Source: a candidate division Kazan bacterium RIFCSPHIGHO2_01_FULL_44_14
GTDB lineage: Bacteria; Patescibacteriota; Kazan-3B-28
DNA length: 64,000 nucleotides
NCBI GenBank assembly: GCA_001771185.1
Contig: METB01000001.1
Coordinates: 186,631-250,630, forward strand
Direction of reading: 5' to 3'
Shown here: positions 2,939 through 57,866 of the stretch, in pieces
Layout: each line of letters begins with the position of its first letter
How positions within the stretch are numbered: the stretch's first letter is position 1
Program-made: the position numbers and the translations under genes
The notes under the pieces: model-generated
What the model saw: only the letters and a program-made list of their open reading frames with translations
Databases searched by the model: none
Told to the model about the DNA's origin: nothing

Positions 2939-4954
2939 TTAATTTATTTGTATAATCTCGACCCCAAACTTCAAGTCAGTTTGCAATTTATCGCTAAATA
3001 ATTGTTTAGTTTTGACCATGTCGTTCTCGGCTAACCCCAGCGCCGGAGATAATTTCAAAATACTAGTTAAAGTCGTATTGTTGGCGCCTGGTTGTTTAAA
3101 AACATTTAATTGGTAATAATCAGTCACTTTTCCAGGCAATCTGTAATTTAATTCCACTGTTTTACTCTCTCCAGGATTGGTAGTTAACCAAAACGCCAAC
3201 ACGGTTTTACCGTTCTCGTCGTATTGTTCTACAGTAGTTTCATAATCCTGTCCGACAACTGAAACTTTCACCGTGTCTTTGGGCAAGTAAACCCGAACAT
3301 AATCTTTGTTAGGTCCGTCCGGAAAAATATAACTACCAGTATGAGTGTATTTAAGCTGTAGGGCAACATTCACATCACCAGTCAAATTAACATTGGCAGT
3401 ATGATGGATTTCTTCCTGAACATTTTGACTGCTTTTGCGTCCGCCCAGGTTAGCCCGAACTACTCCTAAAAAGTCCCCTCCCGATGTTGTTTCCGGCAAA
3501 ACCCCAGCCACGCTAAGTCGGTTCATTACTGGTTCAAGTTTAGGATTACGCAAATAAATCAACACATCTTTTTGCTGTAGCCGAGACATTAGGGCTAGGT
3601 TAATCTGTTTTAAGACCGCTCCATTGGCAGTCAGTAGTCGCCCTAATAAAATTGGCGCAAATTCGTTTAATACTTCTTTGGGATTTTCCTTTTGATTATC
3701 AATCAACTCAATTTGGGCTTGGGTTGCCGACACAAAATTGTCAGCAGTTAAGGTAAGCTCCTTGTTTTCTAAATAGACCGGACCCAGGACGGTTAAAATA
3801 TCTTTAATCACTTCGGGATTAATGGCGATAACCCCATCGGCCGTTCCCCCGCCGGCTTGCTCGTACAACTTTTGGAAAGTTTGAGCGGAAGTTGGGAAAT
3901 CGGCATACCAATTAGCATCCCGAGTGCCAAATGAAGTAGTAATCGCTTCTAAGGGTTTGGGTAAGGTCAGACTTGAATTAGGATTTTGCCCATCAATTCG
4001 TTGGGTCATATCAACCAAAACACTTTTTAATTTACCCTTATAAACTTCCACTAACATATAACTGCCCACAAAACCGCCGGTAGCCCGCAGTTCATTATTA
4101 TTTTGATTCAATATCAAATATTGGCGCGGATTATTGAAACCCAAGGCGTCTGGTAACTCTTTGGCTAAAGTTCCCAGGGTCATCACAGTGGACTGAAGAG
4201 TAGCAGTTTTAATTTGCGCTTCACTCAACGCTGTGGCATAAGTCGAGTCAACCGTTTTAGGATTAATCGACGACAACAAAGTATTGGCTTTGGTTACTTG
4301 GGCTAACGCTCGATCCAGGTTATTAGAACTTTGGCCCATCAAACCAACGATTTGTCCAGCCAAATCTTGCGCCTGGTTGCCGCTGGTGCTCAAACCATTA
4401 AAGTACTGCCACAGCGGTGTCATGGTATCAATTAGAGTGATTCCGGCTTGGGCTAAACTTAAACCACTATCAATTAATTTTTGCCCAGCGACAATTTGTG
4501 AACCGTCACTCGCCAGACCCGACATATATAAATTAGTTTGGCCTAAAGCCAAGAGTTCGGTTTGAGCAGTGGCAAACAGATTCTCCGCCGCCACAAAGTT
4601 GTCCCGAGCCCCAGAGATATCTTGGGCCAAAACCGCTGCCGCAGCGGCTTCTAACTTACCAATTCCCCGATTGGCCAAATCGGTAATTTGGCCTTTCACA
4701 TTATTGGCTGATTGATACACCAGTCCGCCACCGATATAAAGCAGCAGAGCCAGCATAACAATCAGGACTAATTTTAACCCAGCCCAAAGCCAAACCACGG
4801 CAGTTGATTGAACCGTTGCTTCGCTAAAAGCCATATTCAAAGTAGACGAAGGGTTAGTAAAACGAGATGAAACCGGGATAACGACAGAGTTACGAGTAAG
4901 CGGCCGACTTGATTTCGGTTTTACATAATAATACTTTTTAGTGTCTGTACTCAT
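2939..4954 (-). CDS. DUF4012-like membrane-anchored protein, a family associated with polysaccharide loci.
   Basis: N-terminal TM helix, then a long extracytoplasmic region with an ELRATGGFVGSY motif recalled from DUF4012. It heads a glycosyltransferase cluster. The family assignment is from memory. Confidence 0.45.
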   Translation of the reverse strand: MSTDTKKYYYVKPKSSRPLTRNSVVIPVSSRFTNPSSTLNMAFSEATVQSTAVVWLWAGLKLVLIVMLALLLYIGGGLVYQSANNVKGQITDLANRGIGKLEAAAAAVLAQDISGARDNFVAAENLFATAQTELLALGQTNLYMSGLASDGSQIVAGQKLIDSGLSLAQAGITLIDTMTPLWQYFNGLSTSGNQAQDLAGQIVGLMGQSSNNLDRALAQVTKANTLLSSINPKTVDSTYATALSEAQIKTATLQSTVMTLGTLAKELPDALGFNNPRQYLILNQNNNELRATGGFVGSYMLVEVYKGKLKSVLVDMTQRIDGQNPNSSLTLPKPLEAITTSFGTRDANWYADFPTSAQTFQKLYEQAGGGTADGVIAINPEVIKDILTVLGPVYLENKELTLTADNFVSATQAQIELIDNQKENPKEVLNEFAPILLGRLLTANGAVLKQINLALMSRLQQKDVLIYLRNPKLEPVMNRLSVAGVLPETTSGGDFLGVVRANLGGRKSSQNVQEEIHHTANVNLTGDVNVALQLKYTHTGSYIFPDGPNKDYVRVYLPKDTVKVSVVGQDYETTVEQYDENGKTVLAFWLTTNPGESKTVELNYRLPGKVTDYYQLNVFKQPGANNTTLTSILKLSPALGLAENDMVKTKQLFSDKLQTDLKFGVEIIQIN

Positions 4955-12888: not shown

Positions 12889-14745
12889 ATGGCCCGGAAG
12901 AATTCACTAAAATTATCTATTCCCAACAACCTAGTGGCATTAACTACCCAGGAAATTATAGCCATGAGTTTTGGGTTTCTGCTTTTACTAACTCCTTTGC
13001 TTAGTACTGGCCTGGCTCCCTTTTCTGGTGTCTACGATCAGAATATGTGGATACTGGTTGCAACCGGCACATTCCTAGTGGTCGGGCTGCTGCAATGGCT
13101 CCGGTTGTCCCAACGGTCATTTCAATGGAATTTAATTGATCTTTTGGCTCTTGGCTGGGGAATTTGGCTACTAATAACTACTCTCACCTCGATTAATCCA
13201 ACTGACAGTTGGTTCGGCGGTGTCCATCGCACCGGCAGTTTATCGCATTGGTTGGCGCTATTAACCATCTATTTTTTGATGCGCCGATTGGTACCATCAT
13301 TCAGCTCGGTATGGCAGACACTACAAACCACGATTATTTATTCGGGTACGGCAGTTGCTATTGTCGGCTTGGCCAAACTTGCACTTGGGACACAGACCAG
13401 TCCGGAATTAATCGGGTTGCTTGGCAATCAAAACTTCACCGCTTATTACCTAGCAATTACTTTAGTAACCACTTATGTTTATTGGCTGACCAACCGCTTG
13501 AATTGGCGCGACCCCGCCATTCTGGCATTGCTCATTCAAGTAGTTGCTATTTGGTACACCAATGCCAAGTGGATATATTTCATAGTGCCAGTGATTCTAG
13601 TTGTAATTTTAATTGTCGCAATCCGTCATCTCCATATACACCGTGCTAAACAGTGGTTAACTGCTGGTCTCGTAGGTGCTGGCGTTATAACAATATTGGG
13701 CAGTTTTTGGCTGGATGGCCAGGCCTACTTCAACTTTAATTTCTTTTCGTTCACTAACCGGCTCCATGCTTGGGAAGTATCCTGGCAAGCCAGTTTAGAT
13801 CGGCCACTCTTTGGCTGGGGATTGGAAAATTACGATAATGCTTTCCAAGCTAACTTTCAACCGAAGTTTGAAGATGCAGTTGGCTCAACCGAAACTTTAG
13901 ATCGGGCTCATAATTTCATTTTTGATTATCTGGTGTTTACTGGTTGGCTAGGATTAATTTTGTTATTAACTTGGCTAGGGATGGCCATTGCGATTGGTTG
14001 GCAACACATCGGTAAAAATCCTTTAGCCATCTGGGCAATTGGTGTAGTAATAACTTACATCTGCATCAATCTGCTAGGATATGAGACCATCGCCACGACT
14101 GCGCTATTAATGTTAGCGCTAGCTTATTTAGGCACTTTATCTAAACCAATTTTCACGATGCCAACTCGATTAATCCATCCTTATGTTGGCCTAGTTGGTA
14201 TAGCGTTAACCATAGTATTAACAATGCAGTTTGTGATTATGCCGTGGATAGCCACTCGCAGGGCTTGGCAGAGTGCACTCCAATTTGACTTAACTAAGTT
14301 CAATAATGCCCTAGAGATTGCCCCCTATTTAAAACCGGAATTGGCTTACTACTTAATCGTCCCAGCTTACTTTCCAACTGAAGATATGACGCCCGAGTTC
14401 GCTGGTAGATTAGCCAATTACCTAGAACAAATCAAAGGGCATCGCGATGATCAGCCAGGTTATCATCTGGCAATCGTGAAGGCCTGGGAAATGTCTAATT
14501 CACCCAATCGGCTCCAAAAGATGAAGAATAATCTCGTAGCCGGAATGGCAACCTATGACAACAATAACGGTTACTACTGGGCATTCTTGTCGGCAATCGA
14601 ATTAAAACTTGGCAATACCGAATCTGCTTTATCTGCCATCGAGCGAGCCAAACAACTCAATCCCAACTCCAAATTCACAGCCGACACCGAGGCATATATT
14701 CTGTCGACCATCAACGAACAGCCCACCACCGATGACACGACTTAA
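12889..14745 (+). CDS. O-antigen ligase / Wzy_C-family polytopic membrane protein with C-terminal TPR-like repeats.
   Basis: At least ten TM helices, the Wzy_C signature RAHNFIFDYLVFTGWLGL, and C-terminal helical repeats (AIERAKQLNPN...). Confidence 0.65.
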   Translation: MARKNSLKLSIPNNLVALTTQEIIAMSFGFLLLLTPLLSTGLAPFSGVYDQNMWILVATGTFLVVGLLQWLRLSQRSFQWNLIDLLALGWGIWLLITTLTSINPTDSWFGGVHRTGSLSHWLALLTIYFLMRRLVPSFSSVWQTLQTTIIYSGTAVAIVGLAKLALGTQTSPELIGLLGNQNFTAYYLAITLVTTYVYWLTNRLNWRDPAILALLIQVVAIWYTNAKWIYFIVPVILVVILIVAIRHLHIHRAKQWLTAGLVGAGVITILGSFWLDGQAYFNFNFFSFTNRLHAWEVSWQASLDRPLFGWGLENYDNAFQANFQPKFEDAVGSTETLDRAHNFIFDYLVFTGWLGLILLLTWLGMAIAIGWQHIGKNPLAIWAIGVVITYICINLLGYETIATTALLMLALAYLGTLSKPIFTMPTRLIHPYVGLVGIALTIVLTMQFVIMPWIATRRAWQSALQFDLTKFNNALEIAPYLKPELAYYLIVPAYFPTEDMTPEFAGRLANYLEQIKGHRDDQPGYHLAIVKAWEMSNSPNRLQKMKNNLVAGMATYDNNNGYYWAFLSAIELKLGNTESALSAIERAKQLNPNSKFTADTEAYILSTINEQPTTDDTT

Positions 14746-16647: not shown

Positions 16648-16737
16648 CGTCATGCTGAACTCGTTTCAGCATCTCATATTTCACGTCATGCTGAACTTGC
16701 GATGTCCCGAGTTTACCGAGGGGTTTCAGCATCTCGA
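16648..16737. repeat. Hairpin repeats (GTCATGCTGAAC...GTTCAGCATC) overlapping the 3' end of the GIY-YIG pseudogene.
   Basis: Same family as 6153-6203, 17015-17065 and 20143-20252. Confidence 0.7.
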
Positions 16738-17006
16738 ACCAAATCTTTCCATTTAGGGTTACTTGCTTCTATTAGATTAATTTTCCACTGCCGGTGCCAA
16801 TTTTTAAGCTGTTTCTCTCTTTGAATCGCTTTGGCAATGTCAGAGTATTCTTCCAAATATACCAAATGATACAGACGATATCTTTGAGGAAAAGATAGGG
16901 TGGTCCTGGAATGTAAATCGAGTCAATTTTCAATTCCGCTGGTCACTCCAATATACAGTGTGCCACGGGGTTTATTGGTAAGAATATAAACAAATCCTAC
17001 TTTCAT
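16713..17006 (-). pseudogene. GIY-YIG nuclease gene interrupted by an in-frame TGA at codon 28 (rc TCA at 16923-16925). The N-terminal 27 aa and C-terminal 69 aa are in the same frame.
   Basis: Minus-strand translation gives MKVGFVYILTNKPRGTLYIGVTSGIEN*LDLHSRTTLSFPQRYRLYHLVYLEEYSDIAKAIQREKQLKNWHRQWKINLIEASNPKWKDLVRDAETPR*. Both halves align to the intact paralogue at 17620-17904. Confidence 0.6.
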
Positions 17007-17014
17007 CGGGTATA

Positions 17015-17065
17015 GATCCCGAAACCCCTCGGCGGGCTCGGGACATCGCAAGTTCGGGATGACAT
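17015..17065. repeat. Hairpin repeat copy (GATCCCGAAACCCCTCGGCGGGCTCGGGACATCGCAAGTTCGGGATGAC).
   Basis: An inverted copy of the 16683-16737 sequence with a few substitutions. Confidence 0.7.
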
Positions 17066-17491: not shown

Positions 17492-17610
17492 TTGTCATCC
17501 CGAGCATTACCCTCTTGTCATCCCGAACATTACCTTCTTGTCATTCCGAGTGTTACCCTCTTGTCATCCCGAGTGTTACCCTCTTGTCATCCCGAGCGTA
17601 GTCGAGGGAT
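17492..17610. repeat. Tandem repeat of about 4.5 x 23 bp (TTGTCATCCCGAGCATTACCCTC).
   Basis: Units read directly at 17492, 17515, 17538, 17561 and 17584. The last unit merges into the inverted repeat that flanks the GIY-YIG gene. Confidence 0.85.
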
Positions 17611-17619
17611 CTATTATCT

Positions 17620-17904
17620 TTATTCCCATTGCATTGATATATCCTCCCATCCTGGATTCATCCGTTGAATCAAGGTCTCTTTCTTACTACGACGCCAACC
17701 TTTAAACTGCTTTTCGCGTGCAATAGCAGATTCCACATCCAAACAAGATTCAAAGTAAACTAATTGTTGAGTTTTGTATTTTGACGAGAATCCAGGGATC
17801 AATTCGTGTTCATGTTCGTACGCTCGTCTGTTTAAATCATTGGTAACACCGACATACAACACTCCTGAACGACTGGCCATAATATAGACATAGTATTCTT
17901 TCAT
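17620..17904 (-). CDS. Small GIY-YIG nuclease-domain protein, flanked by imperfect inverted repeats.
   Basis: MKEYYVYIMASRSGVLYVGVTNDLNRRAYEHE. Flanks are GTCATCCCGAGCGTAGTCGAGGGATC (17587-17612) and rc CTTGTCATTCTGAGCGAAGCGTTAGCGGAGTCG (17915-17955). Confidence 0.75.
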   Translation of the reverse strand: MKEYYVYIMASRSGVLYVGVTNDLNRRAYEHEHELIPGFSSKYKTQQLVYFESCLDVESAIAREKQFKGWRRSKKETLIQRMNPGWEDISMQWE

Positions 17905-17993
17905 TATAAGATTCTTCGACTCCGCTAACGCTTCGCTCAGAATGACAAGAGGGACATATTTTTTCCTATATTCTAGATTCTAAATTCCAAATT

Positions 17994-20142: not shown

Positions 20143-20252
20143 CCGTGTCATCCTGAACCCCTTCTCGTGTCATCCTGAACTTGTTTCAGGATCCCCGCCG
20201 GAGATGCTGAAATCCCTCGGCTGGTTCGGGACATCGTAAATTCAGCATGACG
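20143..20252. repeat. Hairpin repeat cluster (GTGTCATCCTGAAC x2 ... GTTTCAGGATCC ... GATGCTGAAATCCCTCGG...TTCAGCATGACG) just upstream of proS.
   Basis: Same family as 6153, 16683 and 17015. Its core also occurs inside argS at 25380-25510. Confidence 0.7.
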
Positions 20253-23831: not shown

Positions 23832-25808
23832 ATGCATCTATTAATTCAGATACAAAACCAGATCAAGCAGGCCATTACCAAAACCTGGCCAGATTTGTTG
23901 ATACCAATTATCGAGGTAACTCCGGCGCCCAATTCTGTTGGACAGCAGAACAATTTCGGTGACTATTCTTGCGCAGTGGCTCTTAATCTTGCTAAACAGT
24001 TACGAGCCAATCCGCTAGAGATTGCCGAACAACTAAAAAACGCTCTCGGTCAAGTTGAGTTGATTGCCGACACTACCGTAACCGCCCCCGGCTTTATTAA
24101 CTTCCATCTTGATTACCCCACTGTTGCCCAAATCATTCTTGCCCCCGCAACTCGCAACTCGCAACTTGCAACTCGTCCCCGCAACATTGTCATCGAACAC
24201 ACCTCTATCAATCCCAACAAAGCCGCGCATGTCGGACATTTGCGAAATGCCTGTTTAGGCGATTCGTTGGCACGGGTTTTGCGGACTCTTGGTCACCAAG
24301 TTGAAGTCCAAAATTACATTGACGATCTTGGACTGCAAGTCGCCGACAGCGTGGTGGCTTACGAAACTTTCGGCAAACTACCGGAAGGCGTTGCTTGGGA
24401 CAAATGGTTTTGGGAAGTTTACGCTAAAATTCAACCCAAATACGAAAGCCAACCAGAATTGATAGAACGGCGTGAGGCCATTCTTAAAGAAATGGAGCAG
24501 GGTCAAAATCAGACCGCTAAACGGATTGTTAAAGAAATGGTCTCGGCTCATCTGACCACTTTAAAACGATTCGGTATTGCCTACGACAATTTGGTTTATG
24601 AACATGACATTGTCGGTCATCACTTATGGGACAATGTTTTTACTGAACTAAAAAATAAACGACTAATCGTTCAACCCAAGTCCGGTAAGCACAAAGGGGC
24701 CTGGATCGTGAAATTTGGCACAACCGAAGATGAAGATAAAGTTCTAGTTCGAAGTAACAGTGTGCCAACCTATGTCGCCAAAGATCTGGCTTATGCCCTG
24801 TGGAAATTTGGACTGACTTCTACTCTGCCTGGCTATACCCGAAAGTTTTCTCAAGCCGATGAAGTGGTAAATGTAATTGATAATCGGCAGGCCTATCCTC
24901 AAGCCGTCATCAAACAAACCTTGTCCAAATTGGGTTATCAGTCGCAGGCCGATAACTATTTACATTTAAGTTACGGCGTAGTCAAATTGTCAGAGCGCGC
25001 CATGCAAACACTTGGCGAAACCACCACCGGCAAAACCACTTATTCCATGTCTGGTCGGGCTGGCATCGGTGTAATTGTGGACGACTTGTTTACTACCGTC
25101 ATGGAGGCGCAAATTAAAGCTCATCAAACAGAACCCCAAATTGCCGAACAAATAGCAGTGGGTTCGATTCGTTATTATATGCTTAAAACCCGGCCGGAAC
25201 GGGAAATTATTTTCGACTTCGATGAAGCCCTGAAAACTGACGGCAATACTGGAATTTATTTGCAATACGCCTACGCTCGCGCCAATAATATTCTAGCCAA
25301 GGTAGCCCCTTCCCTCGACGGACTCGGGACCTTGCTCACCCTCGGGGAATTAAATATTGTTCCCCCGACGAACGGAGGGGTCACCCCTCGTCATCCTGAA
25401 CTCTTATCCCCTGAGCTTGTCGAAGGGTCAGGATTTATCCCCTCTGTCATCCCGAGTGCAATCAAAGAATCTACTCTGTCTCCTCGTCATCCTGAATTTA
25501 TTTCAGGATCCAATACGAATAAAGCCATCTTCGATAATCTCAACCCGCAGGAAAAAAACTTAATCAAAGTTTTAACTGAATTTGATTTTAATTTATCTCT
25601 TTCGGCTGATGAATTAGACCCATCCAAACTTTGTGATTATGCCTATCAACTGGCCAATGCTTTCGCCAAATTCTATGAGACCAGCCCGGTGGTGGGGGCA
25701 AACACCGAAGCCCAAAAAGAGTTTAGAACCGGATTGGTCACAGTATATGCCAAAGTGCTATCAGAGGTTCTTTCACTACTAGGTATCCCTCAACTCGATC
25801 GGATTTAA
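23832..25808 (+). CDS. argS: Arginyl-tRNA synthetase carrying an in-frame insertion of about 55-60 aa derived from a repeat element.
   Basis: HVGH motif, DALR-type C-terminus (YAYQLANAFAKFYET); 658 aa against about 580 typical. The extra segment maps to 25330-25510. Confidence 0.9.
   Translation: MHLLIQIQNQIKQAITKTWPDLLIPIIEVTPAPNSVGQQNNFGDYSCAVALNLAKQLRANPLEIAEQLKNALGQVELIADTTVTAPGFINFHLDYPTVAQIILAPATRNSQLATRPRNIVIEHTSINPNKAAHVGHLRNACLGDSLARVLRTLGHQVEVQNYIDDLGLQVADSVVAYETFGKLPEGVAWDKWFWEVYAKIQPKYESQPELIERREAILKEMEQGQNQTAKRIVKEMVSAHLTTLKRFGIAYDNLVYEHDIVGHHLWDNVFTELKNKRLIVQPKSGKHKGAWIVKFGTTEDEDKVLVRSNSVPTYVAKDLAYALWKFGLTSTLPGYTRKFSQADEVVNVIDNRQAYPQAVIKQTLSKLGYQSQADNYLHLSYGVVKLSERAMQTLGETTTGKTTYSMSGRAGIGVIVDDLFTTVMEAQIKAHQTEPQIAEQIAVGSIRYYMLKTRPEREIIFDFDEALKTDGNTGIYLQYAYARANNILAKVAPSLDGLGTLLTLGELNIVPPTNGGVTPRHPELLSPELVEGSGFIPSVIPSAIKESTLSPRHPEFISGSNTNKAIFDNLNPQEKNLIKVLTEFDFNLSLSADELDPSKLCDYAYQLANAFAKFYETSPVVGANTEAQKEFRTGLVTVYAKVLSEVLSLLGIPQLDRI
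25330..25510 (+). repeat. In-frame repeat-element insertion inside argS (GGGACCTTGCTCACCCTCGGGGAA ... CGTCATCCTGAAC ... GGGTCAGGAT ... TGTCATCCCGAG ... CGTCATCCTGAATTTATTTCAGGATCC).
   Basis: The first 25 nt match the intergenic GGAACCTTGCTCACCCTTGGGGAAGC at 57818-57845. The GTCATCCTGAAC/GTTCAGGAT hairpins match 20143-20252. The stretch encodes ...GTLLTLGELNIVPPTNGGVTPRHPELLSPELVEGSGFIPSVIPSAIKESTLSPRHPEFISGS... where E. coli ArgRS has about 14 aa. Confidence 0.75.
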
Positions 25809-38881: not shown

Positions 38882-39283
38882 TGGAGTCCTCCTTTTTCAA
38901 ATTGTCAGGGTGCCTACGCCCCCTGCTACCCGCACTATACTTCAATGTTAAAAAATCCGCAACTAGCGCGGGTTTTGCTCCCTGCCATAAGAGAAGGGCT
39001 GTCTTTTTGTTTTTTTGGCCCTAGGACAAGGACTGTTCTGAACTGAACTAAATCTCGGCGGGTGGAGCCGCATGTTTGATCCCGGCTTGCCGGGAGAGTT
39101 CGGCGGGAACACCCAGAGATTTAGTCAGTGAATAAGTCCGAGGACATTGGCCAGCGGTTTACCCCGCTTTGCCAAGACAAAGCGGGAACGGGTCGAGCGC
39201 CGTTATGCGCTCGGAAACAAAAAAAGAAACATTTCTGTTTCTTTCTGGATCCGTCAGCTGACGGATGACGACAAAAAATAGAC

Positions 39284-39592
39284 CTAATTAAACAACCGTC
39301 CCGCGGAGAGTATCCACTGCGTCAATGCAGTATGTTCGACTGTCCACTTGGCCACAAACAGCAAGGCCGTCATTGATACAAGTAATGGGACCAACACCAC
39401 CAAATCCCGCTTGACCGTCGTATGACTATTATTAGCAATCATTTCAGCCGATGGCTCTTTGGCTATAATTGGTGACTGAACAGACGAATCCGCCAGCTGG
39501 CGGACCGCTGTAGGAGCGGATGTATTAGCGGTTTGATGCAAGGCCTGAAGTCGCTGTAACTCTTTCAGTTTTTTGAGATGTTTATTGGACAT
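39284..39592 (-). CDS. Hypothetical small protein with a C-terminal TM helix.
   Basis: ORF only; no motif. Confidence 0.3.
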   Translation of the reverse strand: MSNKHLKKLKELQRLQALHQTANTSAPTAVRQLADSSVQSPIIAKEPSAEMIANNSHTTVKRDLVVLVPLLVSMTALLFVAKWTVEHTALTQWILSAGRLFN

Positions 39593-40183
39593 AATTTCTT
39601 TTATCTGTCATCCCCAACTTGATTGGGGATCCAGACAGAGACACAAACACTTTTCTGTTATTTTCTGGATTCCCTCCGCCAGTTGGCGGATTCGCGGGAA
39701 TGACAAAAAGTATAACTGGATGACGGACAAAATGGATTGAGCGCAGAGTACCCGCGACGGATTCTGCCGTTCGGCAGAACTTTCAGCCCACCTTGTCCTG
39801 CTGGACAGCAGGACGGTCCAACCCCGAAGGGGCCCTGGAATCTTTGGCGCATAATCCCCGCGACGACCTACTTTTGCAGGACCTTGCGGTCCAACTATCA
39901 TCGGCGCTGAGGAGCTTAACTGCTCTGTTCGAGATGGGAAGAGGTGTGACCTCCTCGCTATCATCACGGAGATTATAAGCCAAAGAATCTTACTAGGGTG
40001 CTGTTCGAGATGGGAATTCTGCTGTACAGCAGAATCCGGTATCATCACGAGCCTGCCCGCCAAAGTGATATCTATATTTAAAGTGGCTAATGACCTATTT
40101 TGAATGAGATTGAACGACGGCGGGAACTCTAAACTCAATGGGATAGATCCTGAAACAAGTTCAGGATGACATTTGTAAAAGTA

Positions 40184-47097: not shown

Positions 47098-48057
47098 ATG
47101 AAGATGGCCACAAGACATCGAATAGCATTTATGGGTACACCGGAATTCGCAGTGCCTTCACTCCGGGCGTTATTAAGTGATGCTCAATTTGAAGTGGTCG
47201 CAGTCGTTACTCAACCAGACAAGCCAGTCGGCAGAAAGCAGACCATTACTCCCTCCCCTGTTAAAGCAGTAGCCCAAGAACAGGGGATTACTGTCTTGCA
47301 ACCAAGCAAAGTAAAAACTAATGCTGATTTTTGGGCTGAACTCCGAGAATTAAATCCGGATGTAATTGTAGTAGTGGCTTATGGCAAGATTCTGCCACAA
47401 GAGATTTTGGATATTCCACCAAAAGGCATTGTAAATGTTCATGCTTCGTTATTACCAAAATACCGCGGGGCTTCGCCAATTTCGGCTTCGATTTTAAATG
47501 GCGACAGCGAGACCGGCGTTACAATTATGAAAATGGACCTTGAGATGGATACTGGTAGCATCATCGCTAAAAGCCAGCCGGTATCAATCTCCCCCACCGA
47601 CACCACCCAGTCGCTAACTACAAAACTGGCAGAAGTGGGAGCGAAAACTTTGATTGAAAATTTGTCAAAATATTTAGACGGCGAAATTACGCCAACTCCA
47701 CAGAATGAAGCGGAAGCGACCTATGTAAAAATGCTCCAGAAAGAGGATGGGTTGATTAATTGGCAAAATGACGAAGACCTTATCTCTCGCCAAGTTCGGG
47801 CCTATACCCCCTGGCCGTCGGCTCACACACGGTTACCCCTCGACTCCGCTCGGGGTGACAATTGCATTGTCAAAATAATCTCTGCCGAAGTAGCCCCTGA
47901 TATCGATAATCCTAAGGGCAAAATCCAAAAAATTGGTCAAGAGATGTTTATTGGCAAATTAAAAGTTAGTCAATTACAACCAGCCGGCGGTAAACCAATG
48001 TCTGGTAGTGCATTTTTGGCTGGTCACGCCGATTTAATTGGCATTTCCGTGCTATAA
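47098..48057 (+). CDS. fmt: Methionyl-tRNA formyltransferase.
   Basis: RIAFMGTPEFAVPSLRAL...VVTQPDKPVGRK...HASLLPKYRGASPI; def-fmt operon order. Confidence 0.9.
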   Translation: MKMATRHRIAFMGTPEFAVPSLRALLSDAQFEVVAVVTQPDKPVGRKQTITPSPVKAVAQEQGITVLQPSKVKTNADFWAELRELNPDVIVVVAYGKILPQEILDIPPKGIVNVHASLLPKYRGASPISASILNGDSETGVTIMKMDLEMDTGSIIAKSQPVSISPTDTTQSLTTKLAEVGAKTLIENLSKYLDGEITPTPQNEAEATYVKMLQKEDGLINWQNDEDLISRQVRAYTPWPSAHTRLPLDSARGDNCIVKIISAEVAPDIDNPKGKIQKIGQEMFIGKLKVSQLQPAGGKPMSGSAFLAGHADLIGISVL

Positions 48058-51816: not shown

Positions 51817-51883
51817 TCGTCATTCCGGCGAAGGCCGGAATCGTATAAGATTCTGGATGCGCTTCGCTTACCAGAATGACGGG
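51817..51883. repeat. Hairpin element (GTCATTCCGGCGAAGGCCGGAATCGTATAAGATTCTGGATGCGCTTCGCTTACCAGAATGACGG); second copy at 63064-63162.
   Basis: A 45-nt core identical in both copies. Confidence 0.8.
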
Positions 51884-57762: not shown

Positions 57763-57866
57763 TTTTGGTTTTTATTTTTGACTAATTGTAATTGAATTTT
57801 TGGTAGTCCCTTTCCTCGGCAAGCTCGGAACCTTGCTCACCCTTGGGGAAGCACTATTTAAAATTA

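Follow-up and report, generated by a model that had tools for sequence, protein, structure and literature searches.

The argS gene examined here, which encodes arginyl-tRNA synthetase (ArgRS), lies on a stretch of 64,000 nucleotides (the window) from the candidate division Kazan bacterium RIFCSPHIGHO2_01_FULL_44_14 (contig METB01000001.1, positions 186,631 to 250,630), and it carries within its reading frame a block of about 208 nt composed of short palindromic repeat units (Table 1). The 658-codon open reading frame (ORF) is identified as ArgRS by matches to the Pfam domains Arg_tRNA_synt_N, tRNA-synt_1d and DALR_1 and to TIGR00456; its HVGH motif occupies residues 133-136 and every family-invariant residue is kept. 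In alignments to two solved ArgRS, residues 491-564 correspond to residues 521-536 of the P. horikoshii enzyme (2zue) and residues 491-570 to residues 487-498 of the T. thermophilus enzyme (1iq0), i.e. a surplus of some 58-68 residues in a linker of 79, which agrees with the roughly 60 extra residues noticed in an earlier, sequence-only reading of this DNA. That reading had placed them ahead of the DALR domain, whereas they lie inside it: YLQYAYARANNIL covers DALR_1 positions 1-23, the first DALR helix, the surplus residues come directly after, and the domain match picks up again at residue 564 with positions 24-116. The insertion occupies the linker behind this helix of the anticodon-binding (DALR) domain. 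Here some 69 codons, including those for the peptides GTLLTLGELNIVPPTNGGVTPR and HPEFISGSNTNK, run in frame and free of stops with argS sequence on both flanks, as the sequence-only reading had claimed; its limits for the segment, 25330-25510, proved too narrow, the actual span being about 25305-25512.

An AlphaFold2 model of the enzyme, built with 78 sequences, has a mean predicted local distance difference test (pLDDT) score of 86 and a predicted template modelling score of 0.87. Its sole long stretch of low confidence is 498-556 (pLDDT below 50, block means 29-45, no secondary structure), a coil between helices 474-495 and 562-568, and the DALR helices beyond it score above 90. The model fits a predicted disordered surface excursion and in this way backs the earlier suggestion that the segment is tolerated as a surface loop.

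What is this block made of? Four parts can be distinguished, namely an element A followed by units 1, 2 and 3, all three units pointing the same way. Element A contains an inner hairpin, CCTCG-N6-TCGGGAC, at 25313-25330 and has no CGTC-type tag, unit 1 has an enlarged 28-nt loop with a nested partial unit and a TTT tail, and unit 3 is a canonical CGTC-tagged repetitive extragenic palindromic (REP) unit. The sequence CCTCGTCATCCTGAA is present twice, 96 nt apart, and forms an internal direct repeat. When the whole insert is folded as single-stranded DNA (ssDNA) its z-score is a marginal -1.85; unit 3 forms a clear hairpin, and the remainder is not unusually stable. The sequence-only reading had described a single inserted element: its repeat origin has stood, and the block is probably a composite of more than one event and not a single element.

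Repeat units and GIY-YIG cassettes across the window

The components of the block recur elsewhere in the 64-kb window, to which all repeat counts refer. The core of unit 3 (25486-25511) is identical at 24 of 26 positions to 20169-20194 and at 23 of 25 to the minus strand of 40146-40170, and 25323-25349 in element A shares 25 of 27 positions with 57824-57850, a match extendable to approximately 25305-25349 versus 57806-57850. The motif GTCATCCTGAAC, with at most one mismatch, occurs nine times where 0.28 occurrences are expected, and the broader motif GTCATNCNGA occurs 18 times (1.9 expected). Of the 18 tagged units, three are those in argS and 15 lie between genes; ORFs of at least 150 aa make up 72% of the window, yet they contain only these three. 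Both the matches and the motif counts thus confirm that the segment is built from the genome's intergenic repeat units, and the matches reported in the sequence-only reading (to 57818-57845, to 20143-20252 and to the ends of GIY-YIG genes) are real, with small shifts in coordinates. The inner hairpin motif of element A is likewise over-represented (seven occurrences versus 0.38 expected), and three of the seven make up the cores of long units, which either adjoin GIY-YIG genes or belong to the cluster lying upstream of proS. Because its inner hairpin recurs as the core of long units, element A is, judged by its sequence, part of the same repeat system as the tagged units, its 3' half, CTTGCTYACCCTYGGRGAA, being a separate low-copy subtype.

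Many units are arranged in pairs. Oppositely oriented units surround two GIY-YIG genes (16685/17054 and 17586/17937), and 'empty' inverted pairs are found at 20169/20242 and 51819/51850, the former in the cluster upstream of proS, which resembles such a pair. At both GIY-YIG genes the layout is 5'-GTCAT...ATC - gene - GAT...ATGAC-3'; the inverted units on either side of the intact gene occupy 17586-17613 (+) and 17910-17946 (-). The protein of 94 aa that it encodes could be placed only in the GIY-YIG superfamily, with no match in NCBIfam and with 1zg2 (UPF0213; E = 7e-4) as its nearest solved structure, and CGTCATCCTGAACTTGTTTCAGGATCC is proposed as a hairpin that may serve as its ssDNA substrate. 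The frameshifted gene of the other cassette belongs to another subtype (YILTNKP.GTLY, as in the related locus L002). Cassette positions differ in an otherwise conserved neighbourhood: in three related loci (L001, L002 and L004) they occupy the thrS-miaA gap, those of the window are placed between the GT2, GtrA and methyltransferase genes, and in a further locus, L008, they are found around proS and argS, where there are three GIY-YIG genes. The 3' ends of GIY-YIG ORFs run into the flanking hairpin in the window (17620-17904) and in L001 (5020-5328), L002 (4198-4530) and L004 (4882-5190), and the proteins thereby end in tails such as ...DSSLRSE and ...MDSRLRGNDS, so that their stop codon either comes from the repeat or adjoins it.

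Several further observations concern single units or groups of them. Half-unit duplications resembling the tandem array at 17494-17585 are also present in the argS gene of L001 and the thrS gene of L002, and such half-unit arrays suggest that clusters grow through replication- or repair-linked events. The NTS-like unit at 51819-51841 reads GTCATTCCGGCGAAGGCCGGAATC, and its relatives (L001 11497-11524 and copies in L002) read GTCATTCCCGCGAAGGCGGGAATC; this would be a compensatory double change that preserves the stem, and it points to selection acting on the hairpin. Units at 39249-39269 (-), 39607-39630 (+) and 39669-39704 (-) flank or overlap two small minus-strand ORFs that have no Pfam match (39284-39592 and 39608-40138), and the C-terminal end of the latter consists of unit sequence. 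A 27-nt minus-strand hairpin unit, GTCACCCCGAGCGGAGTCGAGGGGTAA, lies in frame in fmt, the gene of Met-tRNA formyltransferase (ORF 47098-48057), at 47834-47860, where it encodes LPLDSARGD in the C-terminal domain; it is identical at 22 of 24 positions to a unit in the argS gene of L002, and at its site the protein has seven extra residues against one solved Fmt structure and none against another. A hairpin finder anchored on GTCA[TC] returned 32 matches against 19 expected and is too noisy for counting, so that only matches ending in ATC with a stem of at least 8 bp were kept as leads.

Expanded linkers and in-frame blocks in related synthetases

Is the extra segment an old part of the enzyme? 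Among 78 aligned ArgRS homologues, the linker measures 11-19 residues in 69 and at least 22 in nine, the extreme being the 79 residues of the window ArgRS. The block is missing from the closest orthologues, which share no more than 60% identity, measure 578-604 aa and have 12-16 residues in the linker. In a loop-masked neighbour-joining tree the expanded linkers are spread over five or more separate branches (P0001; P0002; P0006 with P0009; P0007; P0016 with P0021; P0017, where P numbers denote ArgRS proteins); the tree is rough, and the conclusion needs only that expanded and unexpanded sequences interleave. On the evidence of these alignments, the insert is not ancestral. The sequence-only reading had named a homologous peptide at the same position in unrelated ArgRS as the sign of an ancestral segment; no such peptide was found, nearly all homologues being short-linkered, and at least five other Kazan lineages carry different units at this place.

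The loop was examined at the DNA level in four orthologous syntenic loci: L001 (P0007), L002 (P0009), L003 (P0002) and L004 (P0006). In P0009 the loop is an inverted pair, GTCATCCCGAGCGCAGTCGAGGGATC-TAATACCA-GATTCCTCCACTACGGTCGGAATGAC, whose right arm agrees at all 34 positions with a copy that lies 1.6 kb away on the same contig, in the spacer between proS and argS, and whose left arm is identical at 28 of 29 positions to a unit beside the GIY-YIG gene of the window. In P0007 it contains a literal NTS, CGTCATTCCCGCGAAGGCGGGAATCCAT, together with duplicated 5' half units, and intergenic copies in L002 are identical to it over up to 31 of 31 positions. The loop of P0002 holds a unit related to unit 1 of the window (score 41.5 versus 14.5 +/- 2.5 for shuffled sequences), and that of P0006 holds element A in reverse, in a gapless alignment of 83 nt with 67 identities (81%) that scores 102 in the opposite orientation and 33 in the same orientation. 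P0006 and P0009 are sister lineages, and their loop contents are unrelated. Independent insertions of the same repeat class at this loop are thereby shown in other Kazan ArgRS.

The case of element A deserves particular attention. The argS genes of the window and L004 share 59.5% of their nucleotides overall and 37% at third codon positions, and the two copies of element A code for unrelated peptides. An element identity of 81%, set against 37% at third positions and combined with unrelated peptides, therefore excludes both vertical inheritance of a neutral segment and conservation at the protein level. The contrast suggests either that the element was acquired recently, from a pool shared by both hosts, or that a constraint acts at the DNA level.

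Two side observations touch the same linker. The alignment of element A with the reversed P0006 copy runs on into CCAAGG / CCTTGG (window 25297-25302; L004 11538-11543), where the CCAAGG bases of the window encode the conserved Lys that ends the ...ILAKV helix; this may be fortuitous, or it may hint at a short target or junction sequence. In L008 (4576-4652; argS of the P0078 genome, GCA_964363095.1) an in-frame TAA stands right after ...NIFRKV at the linker and the frame past it goes on (HWEPLVSKPVWAVTASEETKQLIK) to the contig end; argS might be split or interrupted here, unless the stop is an error.

A comparable situation is found in thrS, where the comparison rests on L001, L002 and L004. 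The threonyl-tRNA synthetase (ThrRS) of L002 has 667 aa and that of its sister L004 has 604 aa; the genes are 91% identical in DNA, and the difference is an exact 222-nt block of repeat units that is filled in one and empty in the other. L001 bears a smaller block at the same site, and L004 has an in-frame hairpin of its own close to the 3' end of the gene. The window ORF at 12889-14745, considered as a candidate thrS, encodes an unrelated membrane protein.

Table 1. Location of the features discussed (window positions, unless the locus of a relative is named)
Feature	Location	Strand	Remarks
argS, arginyl-tRNA synthetase, 658 aa, intact host gene	23832-25808	+	Pfam, TIGR00456, structure alignment
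Whole in-frame insert block, residues ~492-560 (APSLDG...EFISGS)	25305-25512	+	edges uncertain by a few nt
Element A, low-copy A-type module	25305-25385	+	inner hairpin, 3' part CTTGCTCACCCTCGGGGAA; 67/83 vs reverse complement of P0006 insert
Unit 1, read as RHPELLSPELVEGSGF	25389-25437	+	CGTC tag, 7-bp stem ATCCTGA/TCAGGAT
Unit 2, read as (S)VIPSAIKES	25445-25471	+	TGTC tag; decayed or chimaeric hairpin GTCATCCCGAG...AAGAATC, 3' arm decayed
Unit 3, canonical CGTC-REP, read as RHPEFISGS	25485-25512	+	CGTC-ATCCTGAA-TTTAT-TTCAGGAT-CCA
A-type module copy, intergenic	57806-57850	+	25/27 core match to element A
Intergenic cluster upstream of proS	20147-20251		half unit; (+) unit 20168-20195; long (-) unit 20204-20251
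Single unit, intergenic, GTCATCCTGAACTTGTTTCAGGATC	40146-40171	-	match to unit 3
Tandem array of four 23-nt 5' half units GTCATCCCGAGYRTTACCYTCTT (17494-17585), then one complete hairpin unit	17494-17613	+	
GIY-YIG gene, single-domain, intact, 94 aa, Ssn-like	17620-17904	-	PF01541 over residues 4-75
Second GIY-YIG cassette, gene ~16713-17006 frameshifted	16685-17063	-	long inverted units 16685-16733 (+), 17015-17063 (-)
thrS block: (+) units, (-) units, half-unit repeats	L002 2032-2253		absent from L004
Smaller thrS block, same site as L002 block	L001 ~3255-3325		
Own 36-nt in-frame hairpin close to thrS 3' end	L004 ~4492-4527		

Relation to known repeats and origin of the block

The units bear a close resemblance to the CGTC-tagged REPs, which are defined by a CGTC or TGTC tag, a stem of 8-9 bp starting with AT, a loop of 4-5 nt and a CCA tail (Di Nocera, De Gregorio & Rocco 2013, PMC3733652). 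Unit 3 fits this stem, loop and tail definition exactly and unit 1 does so partly; the hairpin of unit 2 is decayed. The unpaired 5' tag, for which CCTC would also count, is present as CGTC at 25389 and 25485 and as TGTC at 25445, element A being untagged. As in the published family, the window units are multi-copy and mainly intergenic, form oppositely oriented pairs and clusters, and include some in-frame copies within ORFs; tRNA synthetase genes are among the reported sites of intragenic CGTC-REPs, clusters of which encode 43-82 aa, and no dedicated transposase was known for them as of 2013 (PMC3733652). The differences are that the published hosts are Proteobacteria, Chlorobi, Bacteroidetes, Spirochaetes and Thermotogae and not members of the candidate phyla radiation (CPR) such as Kazan, that many window units have an enlarged loop holding a nested second hairpin, and that the 2013 paper does not describe repeated insertion at one ArgRS loop across lineages.

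The classic Rickettsia palindromic element RPE-1 is a longer palindrome of about 100-150 bp, and it is unrelated to the window units. The likeness to RPEs lies rather in the outcome: as relayed in a later paper, these palindromic repeats enter genes in frame, the genes stay functional and the added segments are tolerated at the protein surface (Ogata et al. 2000, via PMC3733652), and the window ORF is similarly intact with an in-frame palindromic insert that its orthologues do without. The sequence-only reading had proposed an analogy with RPEs, and the relation appears closer than that, given that RPE-4 and RPE-6 of R. conorii, together with dRS3 of Neisseria, have been equated with CGTC-tagged REPs; the link rests on this placement by Di Nocera et al. 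(PMC3733652). The window host differs in being a free-living or episymbiotic groundwater CPR bacterium and not an obligate intracellular alphaproteobacterium.

A second resemblance concerns the GIY-YIG cassettes. Ssn proteins, which consist of a single GIY-YIG domain (cd10448) and whose genes are flanked by hairpins of the NTS/SRM (Ssn-related motif) type, cut ssDNA just upstream of these hairpins in an orientation-specific manner, and the hairpin-ssn-hairpin layout is similar to that of an insertion sequence (Chenal et al. 2025, PMC11893778). The main text of that report does not mention intragenic or in-frame copies (PMC11893778). The window and its relatives share with this system the single-domain GIY-YIG genes of about 95-110 aa between inverted GTCAT-tagged hairpins, with a C after the palindrome. 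The published SRM pattern, HGTCWYN(0-2)YYVSBRHN(0-5)WNVSBRGN(0-2)RNCYNB, matches the argS unit of P0007 and the units flanking the GIY-YIG gene of L002, which agree with the Neisseria NTS as well; among the units in argS or beside GIY-YIG genes in the window none matches, and the two matches elsewhere in the window look like chance (0.2 expected). The window units are accordingly filed, by sequence, as SRM-like CGTC-REPs and not as strict SRMs. The REP/RAYT pairs and their bacterial interspersed mosaic element (BIME) clusters (REPtrons related to IS200/IS605) also combine short hairpins flanking a small nuclease or transposase gene with mosaic clusters, but their tag is GTAG instead of CGTC and their enzyme an HUH tyrosine transposase instead of a GIY-YIG protein. 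As to miniature inverted-repeat transposable elements, inverted unit pairs occur at intergenic sites and in P0009 argS; the block in the window argS has a single orientation, and the thrS junctions have no recognisable target-site duplication.

Taken together, the insert is very probably a cluster of small palindromic CGTC-tagged REP-class units of the NTS/SRM-like kind, joined by element A, that was inserted into argS and is translated. How could such a block have accumulated in this gene? The gene is essential and, the genome being so small, presumably present only once, so that just those insertions which keep the frame and bring in no stop codon would survive. Since the units leave at least two of the six reading frames open (two to five, depending on the unit), a frame-preserving insertion is fairly likely. 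The product would be an ArgRS with a disordered surface loop of about 69 residues rich in Pro, Ser, Gly and Glu, presumably active with the loop present. Growth in steps is probable, resident units serving as landing pads for further ones as in the intergenic arrays; such attraction would account alike for the arrays, the thrS cluster and the composite nature of the block. It is about as likely as not that the units are mobilised through ssDNA, the agents being the small Ssn-type nucleases of the GIY-YIG genes that lie between them.

Several points weigh against this origin. The databases searched contain no insert-free allele of the window argS, and the insertion event has to be read, for this reason, from orthologues that are at most 60% identical; P0121 (582 aa, same 90% cluster), considered as such an allele, turned out to be a C-terminal truncation in which the insert is present. 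Units 1 and 2 depart from the canonical hairpin, and the window variants GTCATCCTGAAC... and GTCATCCCGAGCG... fail the strict SRM pattern. Element A is low-copy, with three copies known, and its mobile status therefore rests on the arguments from orientation and conservation; scans for its core gave no further copies in a genome collection and in metagenomes, from both of which the window genome is apparently absent, its own copies not being among the matches. Those in the genome collection are the argS copy of P0006 (L006, same place as L004) and, as a chance resemblance, a collagen-like Gly-X-Y coding repeat in Clostridia, and the metagenome match is an unrelated high-GC rpsO leader. Finally, no target-site duplication was recognisable at the filled and empty thrS junctions of L002 and L004, and no common target motif was found.

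Could the segment have arisen in place instead, as an old lineage-specific expansion by slippage or duplication, with its resemblance to the repeats coincidental or the intergenic copies derived from argS? The internal direct repeat and the missing empty-site allele would suit such a history, yet the units match a dispersed, mainly intergenic family that brackets GIY-YIG genes, the segment is missing from the nearest orthologues, and other orthologues hold different members of the family, one of them reversed and far better conserved than the third codon positions of its host. Expansion in place is thus largely refuted already and must be considered highly improbable. Scarcely any credence attaches to a misjoin of repeat-containing reads inside argS by a short-read assembler, despite the origin of the sequence from a metagenome-assembled genome (MAG) and the repetitive nature of the block: 10 contigs spread over NCBI (two MAG accessions and a third record), JGI and ENA encode the identical 658-aa protein, in an independent read set (SRR3989344) a variant shows four substitutions elsewhere and none in the insert, and 69 codons run in frame without a stop between argS flanks. 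It is likewise very improbable that the block is removed before the mature enzyme forms, either by intron-like excision from the RNA or by intein-like protein splicing. CPR bacteria are known for intervening sequences in their rRNA genes, and the hairpins could conceivably act as processing signals; against this, the insert has no Rfam match and the Pfam scan detected no intein or Hint domain, some 208 nt are too few for a group I or II intron, and every full-length argS or thrS insert examined is in frame and free of stops, as is expected only if it is translated. The last argument is somewhat weakened by ascertainment through called full-length proteins, and one relative, L008, has the in-frame TAA at this linker.

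A different question is whether a genuine insertion has also been co-opted, the loop or the mRNA hairpins having a function (for instance as a tether or interaction segment on the anticodon-binding domain, or as a translational or mRNA-stability signal), so that its recurrence would reflect positive selection or site-specific targeting. The expansion of nine of the 78 ArgRS at this one linker, on at least five branches, speaks for such a reading, and so do the presence of element A in both orientations at the same site and the unrelated loop contents of P0006 and P0009; different REPs have also been found at about one recB site in X. campestris and X. oryzae (PMC3733652). However, no peptide is conserved, the loop contents being unrelated across lineages; the model predicts disorder for the loop, most relatives do without an expanded one, the decay of the unit 2 hairpin would fit neutral drift, and the thrS inserts likewise resemble tolerated passengers. 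Co-option is accordingly rated as unlikely, and recurrence at this loop would seem to reflect tolerance more than targeting. Somewhat less unlikely, though still doubtful, is the idea that the ArgRS linker is a preferred landing site of an actively transposing hairpin/Ssn system in CPR bacteria. It is put forward because the same 83-nt module occurs in both orientations in hosts that are 60% identical, sister loops are unrelated, thrS exists in filled and empty states, and the GIY-YIG cassettes shift position.

What, then, is new about the cluster of REP-class units in this argS? In-frame insertion of CGTC-REPs, including insertion into tRNA synthetase genes, is already known (2013); the new aspects are the argS gene of a Kazan bacterium within the CPR, the recurrence at one loop and the occurrence in both orientations. 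In-frame palindromic insertion, familiar from Rickettsia RPEs and intragenic CGTC-REPs, is hereby extended to the CPR and to a core translation enzyme. The filled and empty sites, together with the orientation evidence, suggest that the hairpins and the Ssn-like GIY-YIG cassettes they flank have moved recently in very small genomes. If the linker were indeed a preferred landing site, this would be the first natural evidence for mobile, target-specific CGTC-REP/SRM elements, which were described in 2013 without a transposase and tied to Ssn in 2025 by association only. Naturally permissive insertion points emerge at two places, one in ThrRS and the other in the first linker of the DALR domain of ArgRS. 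Such inserts inflate the lengths of MAG-derived proteins and yield spurious 'lineage-specific' segments, and surveys based on the SRM pattern will find the NTS-type units in related Kazan contigs and still under-count elements of this kind in CPR genomes.

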